Shown here: positions 12,501 to 18,500 of the stretch, piece after piece
How the letters are laid out: each line of letters starts with the position of its first letter
Position numbering within the stretch: position 1 is the first letter of the stretch
Origin: Botryllus schlosseri
Lineage: Eukaryota
Assembly (NCBI GenBank): GCA_051294905.1
Contig: CM119372.1
Location: forward strand, 12,898,001-12,962,000
DNA: 64,000 nucleotides
Direction of reading: 5' to 3'
Made by a program: the position numbers and the translations under genes
Notes under the pieces: generated by a model
What the model was told of the DNA's origin: nothing
The model's input: only the letters and a program-made list of their open reading frames with translations
The model's database searches: none

Positions 12501-15500
12501 TCCAAATTGCATGCAGTCATTTTTAAGCAACCTCACAATTTAATCAGTGAATCCTCGGAATCGGAATTAGTTAGTTTTGAACAACCCTAGTGTAGGACGA
12601 TCACCGATTAAACATCACCGATGAAAAGCTTGCCTATTCTCTGCGCGGATTCAGAGCCCCGTTGTTCAGCCCCACACAACTTCCCCCAGATTTTCCAATC
12701 CGTGATGTTCATCAAGTACTGGGGATAGTTTCGTAACCTGCACTGGAAGCGTCCGGCGGAGACTTTCACGTTGCGGCACCAAAGCGTCACGAAATTGTAC
12801 CCATCTGGAAGCGGTTGGTAAGAAGGTTGTCATTTCTACGTTCTTCGATAATGAAGTACCGTAGGGTGGTAATGAGCAGAGGCGGTCAGCACTTGCATTT
12901 TTTCGAAGCACTAAGTACATTTTGCATACTTTCACTGCTTACTCAAGCGGTCATGATTTTAGATTACTTCTACTTAATAGTTTAACTTTTTAGGCAAGAT
13001 TACGCATAGAATACATACTATTGGTATTTGAGTAAAATTTATGAACGTTGCCTTTACTTCTACTGGTGATCACATCTGGTATCAAGTTCGGCCATCCTTT
13101 AAGGACGATTGAATAAGTATGTCTGCCAGGCTTGTACTAACTATCGTATTTTCAAAAAGCTCAACTAGAACTAGAACTAGAATTACTCAGTTTTCAGAAA
13201 CCCGCAGCTAGAACTAAAAATAGAGCAAACAACATTTAAAAATTAATTCACCACAGAATATAGTGCAAACTTTTGACATAGCCTGCCAACGTAATTCCCG
13301 CTTCTCATTCCAGAAAAAATAAGTGCCCACCTCTGGCTAAGGGGTTGAAAAGTCATTAAACGTTAAGAACTGCACTGAACTGGATTTCATTCACCTTGGC
13401 AACACATTACTATCAGACATAGAATCAACATTTCAAAAGGACGGGGTTTCAAGTTTGAAATGGGAGGGATTTCTACCCCAAAAACCCACCCGTTGGCTAC
13501 GACACCGTTAGTAGTGATGACTCCTGGGTAGCAATGGCCGCACAAGTGCACAAACATAAAATCAACAGAACACCGGTATCTCGATTCACGCAAAACGACG
13601 CCACATGCTTTTTAGTTGTTCAGCAACTAATATCTTTGTCGAATGTTACACTAGAACTACTGAATTTTCAAAATCTGCAACTAAAACTAAAACTATTCGA
13701 AAAACGTTAGTTAGTTGACCGTCAACTAACTAAATGAGTAGTCTGTACAAGTCTGATGTCTGCAGCACAAAAGCGTATCTTCGAACTATCGAACCTGCGT
13801 CGTCTGTTTTCATCTCGGGAAACGGCGACGCCTTGTCAATGGATTTCAGCGTTTCCACCGCATTTTCCATACCGTGCATCGACTGATCAGCGAGAGCTGG
13901 ACGGAAAAAATAATCAGTATCTTTACTGTGCAGAGAACGAGCGGGGTTGAAAAAACGAACCATGCCAACACATAGGGAACGCAAGCAGAAAAAAAGGTCA
14001 AACACCGACTCAACATGCGTGCGAGTTTGGTCAAAAGTGAGACACTCTACTTTTGCTTGTAAGTATGGATGTTTGCATTTTACTATCGTACGATGAGAAG
14101 TTAAGCCCGGAGAATTTCAACGGATTGGCCGAGGTTAATTCTCCTCCGGTGTTATCGTAGCAGGCGTCAAGAGAAGTGAAACGGTGATTCTAATGCAATG
14201 CAAATTCTGGAGAACGATATTTCATCAAATAAATATAACATTATACATGAGCATTTCAACATCGTATTGCAGAGCCACTTTTACTTGGTACCAAAGAAAG
14301 CTGCGTTCACTTGCATTACATATTCAAAAAGTATTTGCTTTTACAGTGACGCAACACTACGTACCATCTCATTATCAACATAACAGACTATTACAATAAA
14401 ATAACTCATTAATTACCATTTTCAAATACATCTGCATGTACCGGTAGCCTTATTAGTCTAGCGACGTTAGTAAATTTGTTTTTCGCTGGAATTTCAAATA
14501 TAACAGCAGGCTATTATTCAAGGAAATGTCGGAAAATCCACGCATGTCATTTTGAACAGTCTCAGAATACGCAACTACCGACATATTGTTCCTACTTTTA
14601 TTTGAAAGGTATTGGTCTCTACTTGGACCTGGAGAATAGACTTTAAACGATACAAGATTTTCCTCAGGAAAACCCTAAGGTCAATACAGCAGGTGTTTAG
14701 AGTGAATTTGACAAGACGGAATAGGACAGCATAGCACATATAGTCAAATGTGCGTTTCTTATCAGATATAATATACAGTCCACTTTATACTGATTCAATC
14801 GTTCATAAAAATTGTGCTATCCGGGTATCCCCTTCTGCGGAATTATCTGAAATTCTTCAAAATCTTCTATTTTTTATTTGCACCACCATCACATAATCCT
14901 ACACGAATAGCAGTACGTCAAACCTGTAGCGTCGAAATTTTCGACGGTCCACAAGAACAGGCTCGGCACGCCGGGACGCGCGTACATCTTTCGAGATCTC
15001 GTGAGATAGATTTTATCGTTAGTTTTCTCCAGTTGACGATAAAGCTCCTCAAGCTGGACGCGTGAACAAACGCAAAAAAATGACGGACATGCAAACGGAA
15101 CCGATGCAGTAAAGGCATGCAAACATTCGACAAAAAAAAGATGATTCACAGACATGAAAACGCTCAGTCGTATGATTCTGTGTGTTAATCCGTGACTCGA
15201 AGGAGGACGGCGCATGACAGGAAGCATCGTGCATACAGGCTGGTGTACGCTGTCAGTGTAGCGCAACGATGGCTCTACTGTGATTCGGAAATGACACACG
15301 TGGCTTGATAGTGAAAAGACGGATTTATAATTTTGATTAGATATGGACCGTATATCAATTTATGATTATTCTGAAGCTGCATACGGACTTGAACATGAGA
15401 TTTATAATAATTAGGGCAAGTTTTTGCAACTCATTTTACAGCTTCCGACAGCTTCGTAGATACTCAGAATCTACGTACTATGTTTCAAGCTGTTTGAAGG

Positions 15501-18500
15501 GATTTTATAGTGCACCTTTTGCAACTTTTCTCTGTTTTTCATAGCCAATTTTTACTCCAACTTTTATCAAATATTGCGTAAAGATGTAAAGGAGTGATTC
15601 AAAAATATGCTATAAACTACTTCTAGTATGGTTCTACTCTCGTCGATTTGCATAACAAAGAGCTATATGATGGGTTAGCTGCATCTCACCTATGACACAA
15701 TGGAAAGAAATTAAACTTGCCCTGCCATTTTCTTGCTGTATGCCGGGAAAAAATGTAATTTTTGGCGGTTTCGTCAGACCGTTGAATGGCGAAGTAACAA
15801 ATTTGACATCTCTGCAGGAGCTAGGTTATACAACGGAACCTTTTGAGTATCTCACACCCTAATAATTTAACAAAAATTATCATCGCAACTTTTTATTGCA
15901 ACTGTTGTTAAAATTAAATGCAACGTTCTCTCGATTTTAGTGCAACAAAAACTTGCCCTAATAATAATTGTATCTATTTTCATGGGATTCTCGAAGAAAT
16001 TACAGCCATTACTGCAGACGAGTTGAATCTCAAATTTGGAACAGAACAGCATAGGTAGAGGTCTTGAAACATCGGCATTTTCAACTTTTGTTGCGCCACC
16101 CAGGTTTCGCCACATGACGTCATCGGTAAAGGAACGAAAATTGTTTGGACAGTCTACGATTATCTTCCTTTGGCTTGCTCACTTGAACGTTTGAAATGAT
16201 TTATTGGGAGGAGACGAGACAAATACCAATATTTAAGACACAATTCAACGGCCCGTTCAGTTTCACCCATATTAGAGGCTCGCTTTTAAGCTTAAGTGTG
16301 CGATTTTGCGCAAAAACTTCAAAATGATACGCAGCCATCGGGCGCTACACTGAAGCTGTAACCAAACCTCCCAAAAGTAACCAAACAAGAAAGCAAAGCC
16401 GATTCGAGCCCCTCGCCACGCCCGCACCTGTAATACACAGCGACTGCACGCTCCACAGAAACAACGGCGGATTATTGGCAGTTACGGGCCGGTCCTCGAC
16501 ATGGGCCGGGATAAACGAAAACGAGCGTGACCGGCCTTGCGGGTGACTTGTCGGCTCCTCCTGGATCGGGGACAGGCTGTCGTTGTCCGTGGACCGTTTC
16601 CGGGCAGGCCCGAGGACGGGCAGCGAGGTGGACCGGCTGTGAGACTTGACGGCGGTGGTGGCGGTAGTCGATTTTGAGGCGTGGAATTTTTTGCATCGTT
16701 CCACGTAGATTTTAGTGTTTTGCTCCTCGAGTTTGAAATACAATTCTTCGATCTGCGTCGGCGCGGCGATTAGGATTAATTACAAGACCACATAACAATA
16801 TTCGTAATACAATGTCTGTTGCAAAACCTTGTACTGTACTCCACTCAATTCTTCATCCGTCCATTGTAGCAACCATACCAACATAATAATATAGAGTGGC
16901 ACTAAAACAGTATGAAATACTGCATCTACGACTCAAATTCATGGATCAACACAAAACCCATAGTGTTTTCGTTCAAACGTCATTACAGTACCATTCACTC
17001 GTGGTTAATACTGTCTCGATCGTACACTTAGGGCTGGGGAGGCAAACCTGTGGTCTACGAGAAGGTTCTGAGTGTGCCGTGTGGTAATTTTCGAAATTAG
17101 TGATATTGTCAATTGCCCGTGTAATTCATGGTGACCTTGCAAGATCGATCGAAAATCTGATGTTAGGCATCCCCTGCCATTCCACGAGAATATAACCCTT
17201 TGGCTAAAACGTTGGATGTCACTGATTTAGGGAACGCGGTCTGTAGACCGACCCTGGGCCCTTGCAGTTTGAATCAGATCAGCCCTGTTTCGCCAGATGT
17301 TGTCATCCCGCTCTGCTAATTACCCAATCATATGTCGCGAGGAATCGCAAAAAAATCGTCGTACCTTCTGGCCAGGCAGAAGCTCCCCCTTCTCCCTCCG
17401 TAAGTCCGCCACCCGCTGATTCAAAATATTCCTCCGCTTCTCGCTCTCCTTCCACTCGTCTTTCATCAGTTCGTGGTTGTCGTGGAGGCGACATTCGAAC
17501 TCCCAGTCGGCCAGTTCGAAAACGAATTTCTCCACGACGATACGCAAATCCGGAGGAAGCTTTGGACTCCTGCCGAATATTTCAATTTACCGGTAACGTA
17601 AACCGCATGGGTAACGTGGGATTTTATCAGACAGGACTGGCAGGAGTTTTCGAGTGATTGTAGTCATGTTAACAGGCACAGGTCGTGCGACAATTAAACC
17701 AATATTCAACAAGTCGATATCTATTTTCATGGCGAGCTGCACCTATTGCAATTATACCAGGAGAGTCTGTGTCAAAACTATGGCACGAAGGCCAAATATA
17801 ATCATTTTAGCTTAAAAATAAAACCAAGGCAGATTGCAAAAATCTTTCCCCACATAACTGTAAATGGTTTTGCGTTTCAGTACAATACGGTTGAACCAAA
17901 AATCACAAGCCTCGTTTCGACGCTGATAGAGCCCATGACGAATATGAGTTCAATATCCAGGCCATAAAGCTGTAAAATCGCCAAAAATGTCTAACGACCG
18001 GTCATATATTTAGAATTGGAGAGTACACGAGGAGATATGTTCTGCAACTGGCAGTGAAATCTTTTCCAATTAAGGGGAAAAGCTGGTATCGATCGCAGTC
18101 TGCTATGTGCACCTATGCCGGAACAACTACATATACAATACCTGAATGGATGCGATGTTTTCCTGTACAGGCCTTTCACCCACTTGAAGGTAGTCACAAA
18201 CTGATCGAATGTGGCAGCGAAATCGTAACCATACGGAAAATGACAGGTCCAGTAGGACAGCTCAATTTGCCACGCCCTGTTGCTTTCAGTCTCCATATTG
18301 TTAAACGTAGCCCTGGTAAGATACTGGCACGTTGAACGATATGTATCGAAAAGCGGTGACCACAAGTCGGACCTGTCCTGTTGCGTCTTTTCGTTGTGTA
18401 GCGACAGTTCTACTTTGGCGTTGCGGAAAGTGAACACTTCGTGCTCGTCAAATATGATTTGTGCTTTGGTAAAATTAATGGTGGACACGCCAGACACTTC

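Follow-up and report, generated by a model that had tools for sequence, protein, structure and literature searches.

Two versions of one exon in a tunicate BLTP2 gene

Within the window, the 64,000-nt stretch of Botryllus schlosseri DNA that was analysed, two neighbouring exons, A and B, were found to encode the same segment of the lipid-transfer bridge BLTP2/Hobbit. Very probably, a tandem duplication within a tunicate lineage copied the exon for the second helix of the handle of this protein and the following beta-strand, with one copy used per mRNA, and the overall account that is considered probable joins this duplicated handle exon to a regulatory loop in A and to an exon choice guided by an intronic stem.

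Judged by its sequence, the gene carrying A and B is the tunicate BLTP2/Hobbit. The upstream constitutive exon (17365..17569, minus strand, as are all features given below), which is joined to position 18141 in the contig set X2, matched the Pfam family PF10344 (Hobbit) with an E-value of 8e-13 (46.9 bits, cut-off 24.5), and tblastn with four full-length homologues gave ordered, collinear hits over 18.5-1.2 kb. Both results confirm the assignment to BLTP2 made in an earlier, sequence-only reading of this DNA. A single homologue hit out of order (6436-6215) contained a stop and was taken as chance. Moreover, a FAM102/EEIG1-like NT-C2 gene was present in the genome.

Exon A (16428..16752, 325 nt) and exon B (14924..15053, 130 nt, the canonical length) both run from phase 0 to phase 1 and are followed by the downstream constitutive exon (13795..13896, 102 nt), which is joined to A in X2 and was also recovered by the homologue hits of tblastn. 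All exon coordinates proposed by the sequence-only reading were correct, with AG/GT borders on the minus strand for the four exons. The reading frame was open through the upstream exon, A and the downstream exon, and likewise with B in the place of A, while inclusion of both exons introduced a stop at the first codon of B (codon 178) and omission of both a stop at codon 85, so that the predicted breakage of the frame was borne out. Owing to these early stops, transcripts with both or neither of the exons would be expected to be removed by nonsense-mediated decay.

The homology of the two exons, which had also been proposed, was recovered as two aligned blocks (13/25 identical residues, E 5e-8; 7/14, E 5e-4), amounting to 20 identical residues out of 43 in matching register, and the difference in length was exactly the 65 codons previously claimed. 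Third codon positions were identical in 17 of 43 cases, which is near saturation, and second positions in 28 of 43; 12 of the 20 identical residues were encoded by differing codons. At the codon level, this contrast is the pattern of purifying selection, and the claim of frames kept intact despite strong divergence held, given the near saturation of third positions and an open frame in only 2% of trials when exon A was shuffled. Furthermore, the genome search returned one strong match each for A and for B, and the two exons were sisters in a 44-column tree with a support of 92/88 (not starred). Their splice sites were not obviously weaker than those of the neighbouring exons, and between 1 and 34 kb the window contained no further duplicated exon pair. 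A hidden intron within A was rejected, the in-frame GT..AG pairs being non-canonical or out of register and an X1 contig covering all of A.

The homologous segment was 40-46 aa long in 51 of 55 aligned homologues, truncated in four and longer in none; hence, the canonical length is that of B, and only A has the insert. Only one tunicate model was found (P0136 of Ciona savignyi); it has one segment, which is B-like, with 18/39 residues identical to B vs. 12/39 to A. No relatives of exon A appeared among 85 candidates of 190-2000 aa (a limit that excludes full-length proteins), and no match was found against the Atlas. Among the 75 candidates obtained with the C. savignyi region, the sole match was the region itself, and the metagenome scans gave the A/B region in none of 89 stretches, together with two tunicate-like loci, each with only the 3′ half of BLTP2. 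No solved BLTP2 sequence was found.

Usage of A and B in contig sets

The contig sets X1 and X2 were taken to be RNA, which is a guess as to their nature, and such contigs drop rare forms. In X2, a contig joined 16428 to 13896 (GT..AG) at a depth of 11.5, with zero depth over B. In X1, a contig began exactly at the B acceptor and carried a 30-nt lead, which can be reconciled with the bin depths only by assigning it to the upstream exon's end: in the depth arithmetic for this upstream-to-B junction both affected bins match (8.25 and 2.30), and neither of two alternatives fits. The sequence-only reading had proposed mutually exclusive use, and this is supported by A spliced downstream over B (X2) and, by inference, by B spliced upstream over A (X1). 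The other halves of the proposal, 17365-16752 (upstream to A) and 14924-13896 (B to downstream), were not among the joints listed in X1 and X2, and neither was an A-to-B joint. The evidence thus amounts to one junction per exon, no molecule carrying both junctions of A or of B. Also in X1, the acceptor of A was unspliced and intron depth appeared in most bins. In the raw runs X16 and X20, of which 6% and 13% were read, respectively, depth was zero in the bins of A and B; as it was also zero on the upstream exon and on 18141-18311, these runs have no bearing on isoform use.

The sole contig containing B continues from it into the following intron, 270 nt past the B donor, and with the missing B-to-downstream joint and the absence of B from X2 it would also suit a terminal exon B, giving a truncated protein by intronic polyadenylation, or a decaying copy, A being the working exon. 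An AATAAA lies 46 nt behind the B donor, and reading on past the donor meets a stop after 11 codons. Nevertheless, this explanation is improbable: most bins of X1 show intron depth, the contig passes the AATAAA, and this word occurs here at 0.7 per kb. Moreover, B has kept its canonical length of 43 codons, the beta-strand and, at the homologous phase-1 position, a GT; it is also nearer to the Ciona segment than A.

The exons encode the second helix of the handle

According to the homologue model and to mapped deletion borders, A and B each supply helix 2 of the BLTP2 handle, the FAM102-binding hairpin, whose helix 1 is encoded by the last 46 codons of the upstream exon (17502-17365). The primers of the human dFBM construct fuse FSWVFLDD to TPMRRAL, which, mapped onto homologues, is a deletion of 72 aa, made up of 46 aa from the upstream exon and 26 aa from the start of A or B. 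The primers of the fly handle deletion fuse LLEISD to TRLLA and remove the same element. Deletion of this hairpin impairs the FAM102/Bbo-dependent targeting to ER-plasma-membrane contacts (PMC12406788, PMC13104988). In the AlphaFold model of the homologue P0022 (pLDDT 94), a two-helix handle projects off the repeating beta-groove, with helices at residues 154-191 and 196-224, a loop at 225-229 and a strand at 230-244; the duplicated segment starts at residue 199. The best solved match of this model was the BLTP1 relative LPD-3 (E 2.7e-4).

Exon A consists of handle helix 2 (first 26 codons), the 65-aa insert and the LFLW beta-strand, while exon B has helix 2, a short loop and the LFLW strand. 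Modelled alone, exon A gave a helix at 2-27 (pLDDT 78-95). With high confidence, A retains the handle with roughly half of helix 2 altered, and a disordered loop of 65 residues is attached at the foot of the handle, a position obtained by mapping; isoform B would be the ordinary bridge. The handle role of the exons, the motifs of the insert and the intronic stem were absent from the sequence-only reading.

The duplicated segment supplies the C-terminal 26 residues of the 72 that dFBM lacks in the human BLTP2-FAM102A/B system (PMC12406788), the borders of the handle deletion in fly Hobbit-Bbo (PMC13104988) are the same as the human ones, and yeast Fmp27-Hoi1 (PMC11844476) is a further counterpart of handle and adaptor. 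In contrast to the two versions of helix 2 found here, the available portions of the human, yeast and fly reports describe one handle per gene, and the fly excerpt reports isoforms for the adaptor Bbo and not for the handle. Genomic read-through proteins of vertebrates cross the whole stretch unbroken, and so the intron that enables the swap is apparently absent in vertebrates.

The insert of exon A

The insert (16477..16671, 65 codons) begins directly after the handle, with helix 2 on one side and the groove strand on the other. It is rich in Ser, Thr, Pro and Arg (S+T 20/65; disorder-promoting residues 83%) and is predicted to be unstructured, no regular structure being modelled (pLDDT 50-58). 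Its GC3 of 52/65 is higher than the GC at the other two codon positions of the insert (p 5e-4) and than the 38-44% GC of the flanking introns, and is, on composition, of the coding type.

Four putative motifs were found in it, from a list picked after looking at the sequence. RSTSLP (16618..16635) matches the 14-3-3 consensus Rxx[pS/pT]xP, which recurred in 18% of shuffles in its loose form and in 3.6% as RSxSxP, and LSPIQE(E) (16558..16575) matches the PP2A-B56 docking word LxxIxE, found in 0.4% of 100,000 shuffles. The other two, RSRSFS (16516..16533) and RKRST (16602-16588), which we take to be an Akt-type RxRxxS site and a PKA-type site, occurred in 13% and 24% of shuffles, respectively, and are weak alone. 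The three-motif set was reached by 0.017% of shuffles and five RxxS/T by 0.8%. Both the 14-3-3 and the PP2A-B56 consensus are as given in an excerpt of PMC8786283.

Tentatively, the A loop may be a phospho-regulated switch that makes the capture of BLTP2 by FAM102/EEIG1 dependent on signals. Its parts would be the basophilic-kinase sites, the 14-3-3-type site and the PP2A-B56 docking word, and in cells using A the lipid flow at ER-PM contacts would then depend on signalling. Somewhat less probable still, although a serious contender, is that the insert is a linker that is neutral and tolerated, its motifs having arisen by chance, A and B being alike or differing just by their helix-2 substitutions. 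The 14-3-3, Akt and PKA words, occurring singly in 13-24% of shuffles, agree with it, as does the variable length of disordered loops among bridge-like proteins, e.g. Tweek, in the available part of PMC7613979; the rarity of LxxIxE, of the three-motif set and of the five RxxS/T, and the absence of a comparable insert from the 55 homologues, argue against it.

A long-range stem and UGCAUG words between A and B

The intron between A and B (1374 nt) is predicted to form a long-range stem, with the 5′ arm (16333..16369) located 58 nt behind the A donor and the 3′ arm (15237..15274) about 185-220 nt before the B acceptor. It comprised 34 pairs, 33 of them Watson-Crick, at -49.2 kcal/mol and with pair probabilities mostly of 0.8-1.0. 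In the tile test, whose windows were picked after looking, the stem reached -45.4 kcal/mol vs. -29 +/- 3 for shuffles, and such strength was attained by none of 351 and none of 435 shuffles (0/786; the closest at -44.8 and -43.4) and by none of 190 natural window pairs, two of which came to -41.6 and -44.5. Thirteen other introns gave -19 to -28 in the same test. The best partner scored -50.3 for either arm, followed by -27.8 for the 5′ arm and by -34.8 for the 3′ arm, the latter being A's own donor region.

Moreover, two UGCAUG words of the RBFOX type (at 15121 and 15093; 15088..15121) were found inside the 109-nt AG-free zone preceding B, against none before the 16 other acceptors of the gene (Poisson P 0.0006). 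They lie 116 and 144 nt beyond the stem arm and are predicted to be paired (unpaired probability mostly <0.2), and branch-point candidates before B were located at -57, -102 and -132. By looping out 1.06 kb, the stem is predicted to bring the words within about 175 nt of the A donor. The 34-bp stem and the two UGCAUG before B suggest a structure-guided exon choice, and the stem is, on balance, rather likely to be functional in it; it would exclude 1.06 kb as a loop and carry the words toward the A donor. As for polarity, it is conceivable, though doubtful, that bound RBFOX represses B and favours A, which would predict A in muscle or nerve. A Fox-1_C profile search of the genome gave no match, and a UGG-rich stretch behind A was dropped for being as unusual as 5% of bins.

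The fold also contains an outer, weaker helix, in which the A donor region (16440-16408) pairs with 15190..15232, mainly its part 15190-15225 (probability of 0.4-0.7 with exon sequence, and 0.98 for the pair 16420-15213 in the intron-only fold). This helix opens the opposite logic, in which the stem extends over the 5′ splice site of A and masks it, so that folding favours B. Exon A would then be chosen only where its commitment precedes transcription of the 3′ arm, which lies 1.1 kb downstream, or where a protein opens the helix. The second-best partner of the 3′ arm being the A donor region, and the RNA bridges blocking splice sites recorded in the available part of PMC10790352, are in line with such masking, which is nonetheless unlikely: the outer helix is GC-driven, contains bulges and could form as well with other partners (-35.5 and -34.7), and the two UGCAUG and the 109-nt AG-free zone would be left unexplained.

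With a similarly low probability, A and B could be true alternatives that merely look exclusive, the choice being a loose one made by splicing factors, the early stops of both-in and both-out forms letting nonsense-mediated decay clear them, and the stem would be a chance inverted repeat or decayed transposon ends. Natural windows reach up to -44.5, the loop of the stem contains a repeat whose ends are inverted, and the arms start and finish near TA, as Tc1/mariner ends do. However, 33 of the 34 pairs are Watson-Crick, a genome search that passes over very common words gave one match for each arm, the contigs of X1 and X2 show no depth typical of repeats over either arm, and the arms are placed at both ends of exactly the regulated intron, all of which speaks against this reading.

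Taken to its full extent, the account would describe an ascidian lipid bridge that is selected by splicing and gated by phosphorylation, in which a swap controlled by RBFOX and RNA structure rebuilds the handle and adds a 14-3-3/PP2A-B56 module; in this combined form it is rather unlikely. If true, kinase signalling would turn the ER-PM docking of BLTP2 on or off in excitable or secretory cells or, alternatively, BLTP2 would be diverted to a different adaptor and a different contact site.

Relation to known splicing systems

The A/B pair is a new case of a common splicing class at an unusually informative site. As in the tandemly duplicated mutually exclusive exons treated as a general class in the available part of PMC9013439, the copies are adjacent homologues with the same phases, old divergence and intact frames; unlike that class as described there, one copy is 2.5 times as long as the other, the difference being divisible by three, and bears an insert with motifs. 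Through this motif-bearing difference in length, the A/B switch both swaps a helix and adds a loop. Taken purely as a splicing event, the pair is ordinary and so far known from one ascidian. Two natural versions of the handle in one organism, one of them with a ready-made regulatory loop, would make it possible to test directly if isoform or phosphorylation tunes the binding of the adaptor.

The stem of FGFR2 is reportedly located in the intron separating IIIb and IIIc. An intronic stem between the exons and UGCAUG upstream of the second exon are thus shared with FGFR2 IIIb/IIIc, while gene and sequence are unrelated to FGFR2, ENAH and KIF21A and the present stem is known by prediction alone. 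Fox-2 activates FGFR2 IIIb and represses IIIc via UGCAUG-type elements, and RBFOX represses from upstream and activates from downstream sites (excerpt of PMC2777236). RBFOX RNA bridges in ENAH and KIF21A, and bridges that additionally block splice sites, are described in the portion available of PMC10790352, and the mark of such bridges, a strong long-range stem bringing a distal element near the regulated exon, was found here in the predicted fold.

Long-range intronic pairing around mutually exclusive exons is also shared with the docking-site/selector systems of Dscam1, 14-3-3 zeta and ATE1 (excerpt of PMC11802352), but that type was set aside, no competing partner of similar strength being found in the flanking introns. 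Steric exclusion by a distant branch point, of the OGDH type (PMC7969005), would place the branch point for the second exon some tens of nt from the donor of the first, and was likewise discarded, the intron being 1374 nt long and the AG-free zone only 109 nt. As a side observation, the predicted stem could shorten the effective distance between the branch point and the A donor.

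Two alternative exons in BLTP2

All four exons described by the sequence-only reading were found on the minus strand and were bounded by AG/GT dinucleotides, namely an upstream exon (17569-17365), exon A (16752-16428), exon B (15053-14924) and a downstream exon (13896-13795), and the sizes given, 325 nt for A and 130 nt for B, were correct, as were the phases (0 to 1 in each). As that reading had also argued, the inclusion of A alone or B alone kept the frame. A stop was reached at the start of B when both were included, and 17 codons into the downstream exon when both were left out. 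The proposed homology was recovered as an alignment of two blocks flanking a 65-codon insert peculiar to A (16671-16477). The gene was identified as BLTP2/Hobbit. Its nearest named homologue, which matched the upstream exon at 64%, came from Ciona savignyi, placing the sequence in a tunicate, and A and B had one strong match each in the 495 Mb of genome searched. Moreover, the introns before and after A have in common a 28-nt direct repeat (79%; 16097-16124 and 17280-17307), possibly a remnant of the exon duplication or of a small repeat. The pair is a real, new case within a known splicing class; none of the openly available papers listed for BLTP2, KIAA0100, hobbit, FAM102A and Fmp27-Hoi1 was on alternative handle exons, and none was listed for BLTP2 in ascidians. 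Automated isoform models of other ascidians may already include both.

A total of 20 residues were common to A and B over 43 matched codons, with different codons used at 12 of them, and identity by codon position was 18/43, 28/43 and 17/43 for first, second and third positions, respectively. Furthermore, 52 of the 65 third positions in the insert were G or C, compared to 60% GC at the first two positions (p 5e-4), and the introns flanking A showed 38-44% GC. Judging by codon-position pattern and insert composition, both copies thus look like long-standing coding sequence, in line with the selection earlier argued from intact, diverged frames. In a tree of 16 rows, A and B appeared as sisters (92/88) beside Ciona (94/93), with no branch reaching the tool's strong mark and with a long branch for A. 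The corresponding helix-2/strand segment spanned 40-46 aa in 51 of 55 aligned homologues and was truncated in the other four, all being single gene models, one of them from a tunicate; a second exon in the genomes concerned could be missed in such models. The homologue P0072, from another animal, carried the start of this segment in four tandem copies, which may reflect an error in the gene model or a separate duplication at this site. In four environmental fragments (P0001, P0002, P0009 and P0023) the match stopped at the phase-0 end point of the upstream exon, so that these fragments also have the intron permitting the swap. A 45-kb metagenome contig (L003) from what appears to be a different tunicate harboured the 3′ half of BLTP2, with about 50-80% identity per exon to the Ciona protein, and the handle exons would be expected in the remainder of this contig.

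Place of the exons in the handle

In the genome, an NT-C2 gene was found, which we take from its sequence features to be FAM102-like. This FAM102/EEIG1-like gene comprised an NT-C2 exon and a C-terminal exon (G000:C16, about 3732900-3742200, minus strand; loci L005 and L006), the latter with a helix-like motif (L006:3027-3152, minus strand), and its product is likely the adaptor for the BLTP2 carrying A and B. According to Dai et al. (PMC12406788), a two-helix hairpin (FBM, here the handle) is needed for FAM102A/B-driven BLTP2 recruitment to ER-PM contacts, and the human deletion primers join FSWVFLDD to TPMRRAL. Mapped on vertebrate homologues, this deletion removed 72 residues, of which 46 correspond to the upstream exon and the remaining 26 to the start of A or B. 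In the fly study, the borders of the handle deletion coincide with the human ones, and Hobbit without the handle loses recruitment dependent on its adaptor Bbo and gives no rescue (PMC13104988); yeast work agrees (PMC11844476). Hence, the swap replaces half of BLTP2's one experimentally defined adaptor site.

The structure model of the homologue P0022 showed helices at 154-191 and 196-224, a loop at 225-229 and a strand at 230-244, with the duplicated segment beginning at residue 199, and A and B alike retained the residues conserved in helix 2 (E-L-Y, L, N, I-Y and R). On this model, the insert of A maps to the 225-229 loop, which lies at the base of the handle. The isoform modelling earlier proposed was carried as far as exon A alone, which gave one helix and an unstructured remainder. 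The insert also contains RKRST and RSRSFS, presumably of PKA and Akt type, respectively. RSTSLP matched the 14-3-3 consensus word and LSPIQE that of PP2A-B56, as worded in PMC8786283. With a motif list picked after viewing the insert, LxxIxE arose in 0.4% of 100,000 shuffles, the RSTSLP, RKRST and RSRSFS word types in 13-24% each, and LxxIxE, RxxS/TxP and RxRxxS/T together in 0.017%. These matches are a lead, with the function of the motifs putative, and the loop that A adds to the handle is probably regulatory.

Splicing of the two exons

RNA evidence came from four of 24 listed runs, one from each of four studies. Two raw runs had zero depth on these exons, A and B included. In the contig set X2, presumably derived from RNA like X1, a joint from 16428 to 13896 (A to downstream) was found at depth 11.5, and B was without depth. 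In X1, one contig started exactly at the acceptor of B, preceded by 30 unaligned letters, and the bin depths of 8.25 and 2.30 fitted only if these letters formed the 3′-terminal 30 nt of the upstream exon; placements on the end of A or in the intron did not reproduce them, and the same calculation recovered the listed X2 joint. Each exon was therefore spliced with the other skipped. Of the four isoform junctions earlier proposed, A-to-downstream was thus seen as a joint and upstream-to-B by depth arithmetic, while upstream-to-A and B-to-downstream were not among the joints listed in X1 and X2. Against this use of both exons, the X1 contig ran on from B into the next intron, and the acceptor of A was unspliced in X1. 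The pair is probably fully exclusive, and the choice may be regulated by tissue.

Within the intron between A and B, scans for repeats and for duplexes both revealed a pairing of 16369-16333 with 15274-15237, comprising 34 pairs, 33 of them Watson-Crick, each arm having one match in the genome. This predicted stem appeared in both the best and the centroid whole-intron folds, with pair probabilities mostly of 0.8-1.0. Its tile statistic of -45.4, with window sizes fixed after the stem was seen, was matched by 0/351 and 0/435 shuffles (best -44.8 and -43.4), by none of 13 other introns and by none of 190 natural window pairs, three of which went beyond -40, one being the same stem on the other strand. 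Moreover, two UGCAUG motifs lay 68 and 40 nt before B, both inside an AG-free zone of 109 nt, whereas 16 other acceptors had no such motif ahead of them. Stem and motifs together recall the arrangement in FGFR2 IIIb/IIIc and in RBFOX RNA bridges (PMC2777236 and PMC10790352) and would predict A in RBFOX-rich cells. However, both motifs are predicted to be base-paired, and an outer helix predicted over the donor of A would give the opposite polarity. The arrangement conformed neither to a docking/selector layout nor to simple steric exclusion between A and B. The stem may function in exon choice, and would let the intron tolerate insertions such as a repeat with 23-nt inverted ends located in its loop (15404-15968), which showed high repeat depth in reads.

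Elsewhere in the window, a THAP domain with a weak transposase RNase H match (39432-40034, plus strand) corresponded to a P-element-like remnant, exons of an SLC6 sodium:neurotransmitter symporter gene lay at about 50500-59000 (minus strand), and a stretch of roughly 300 bp was duplicated at 49196-49486 and 51401-51706.
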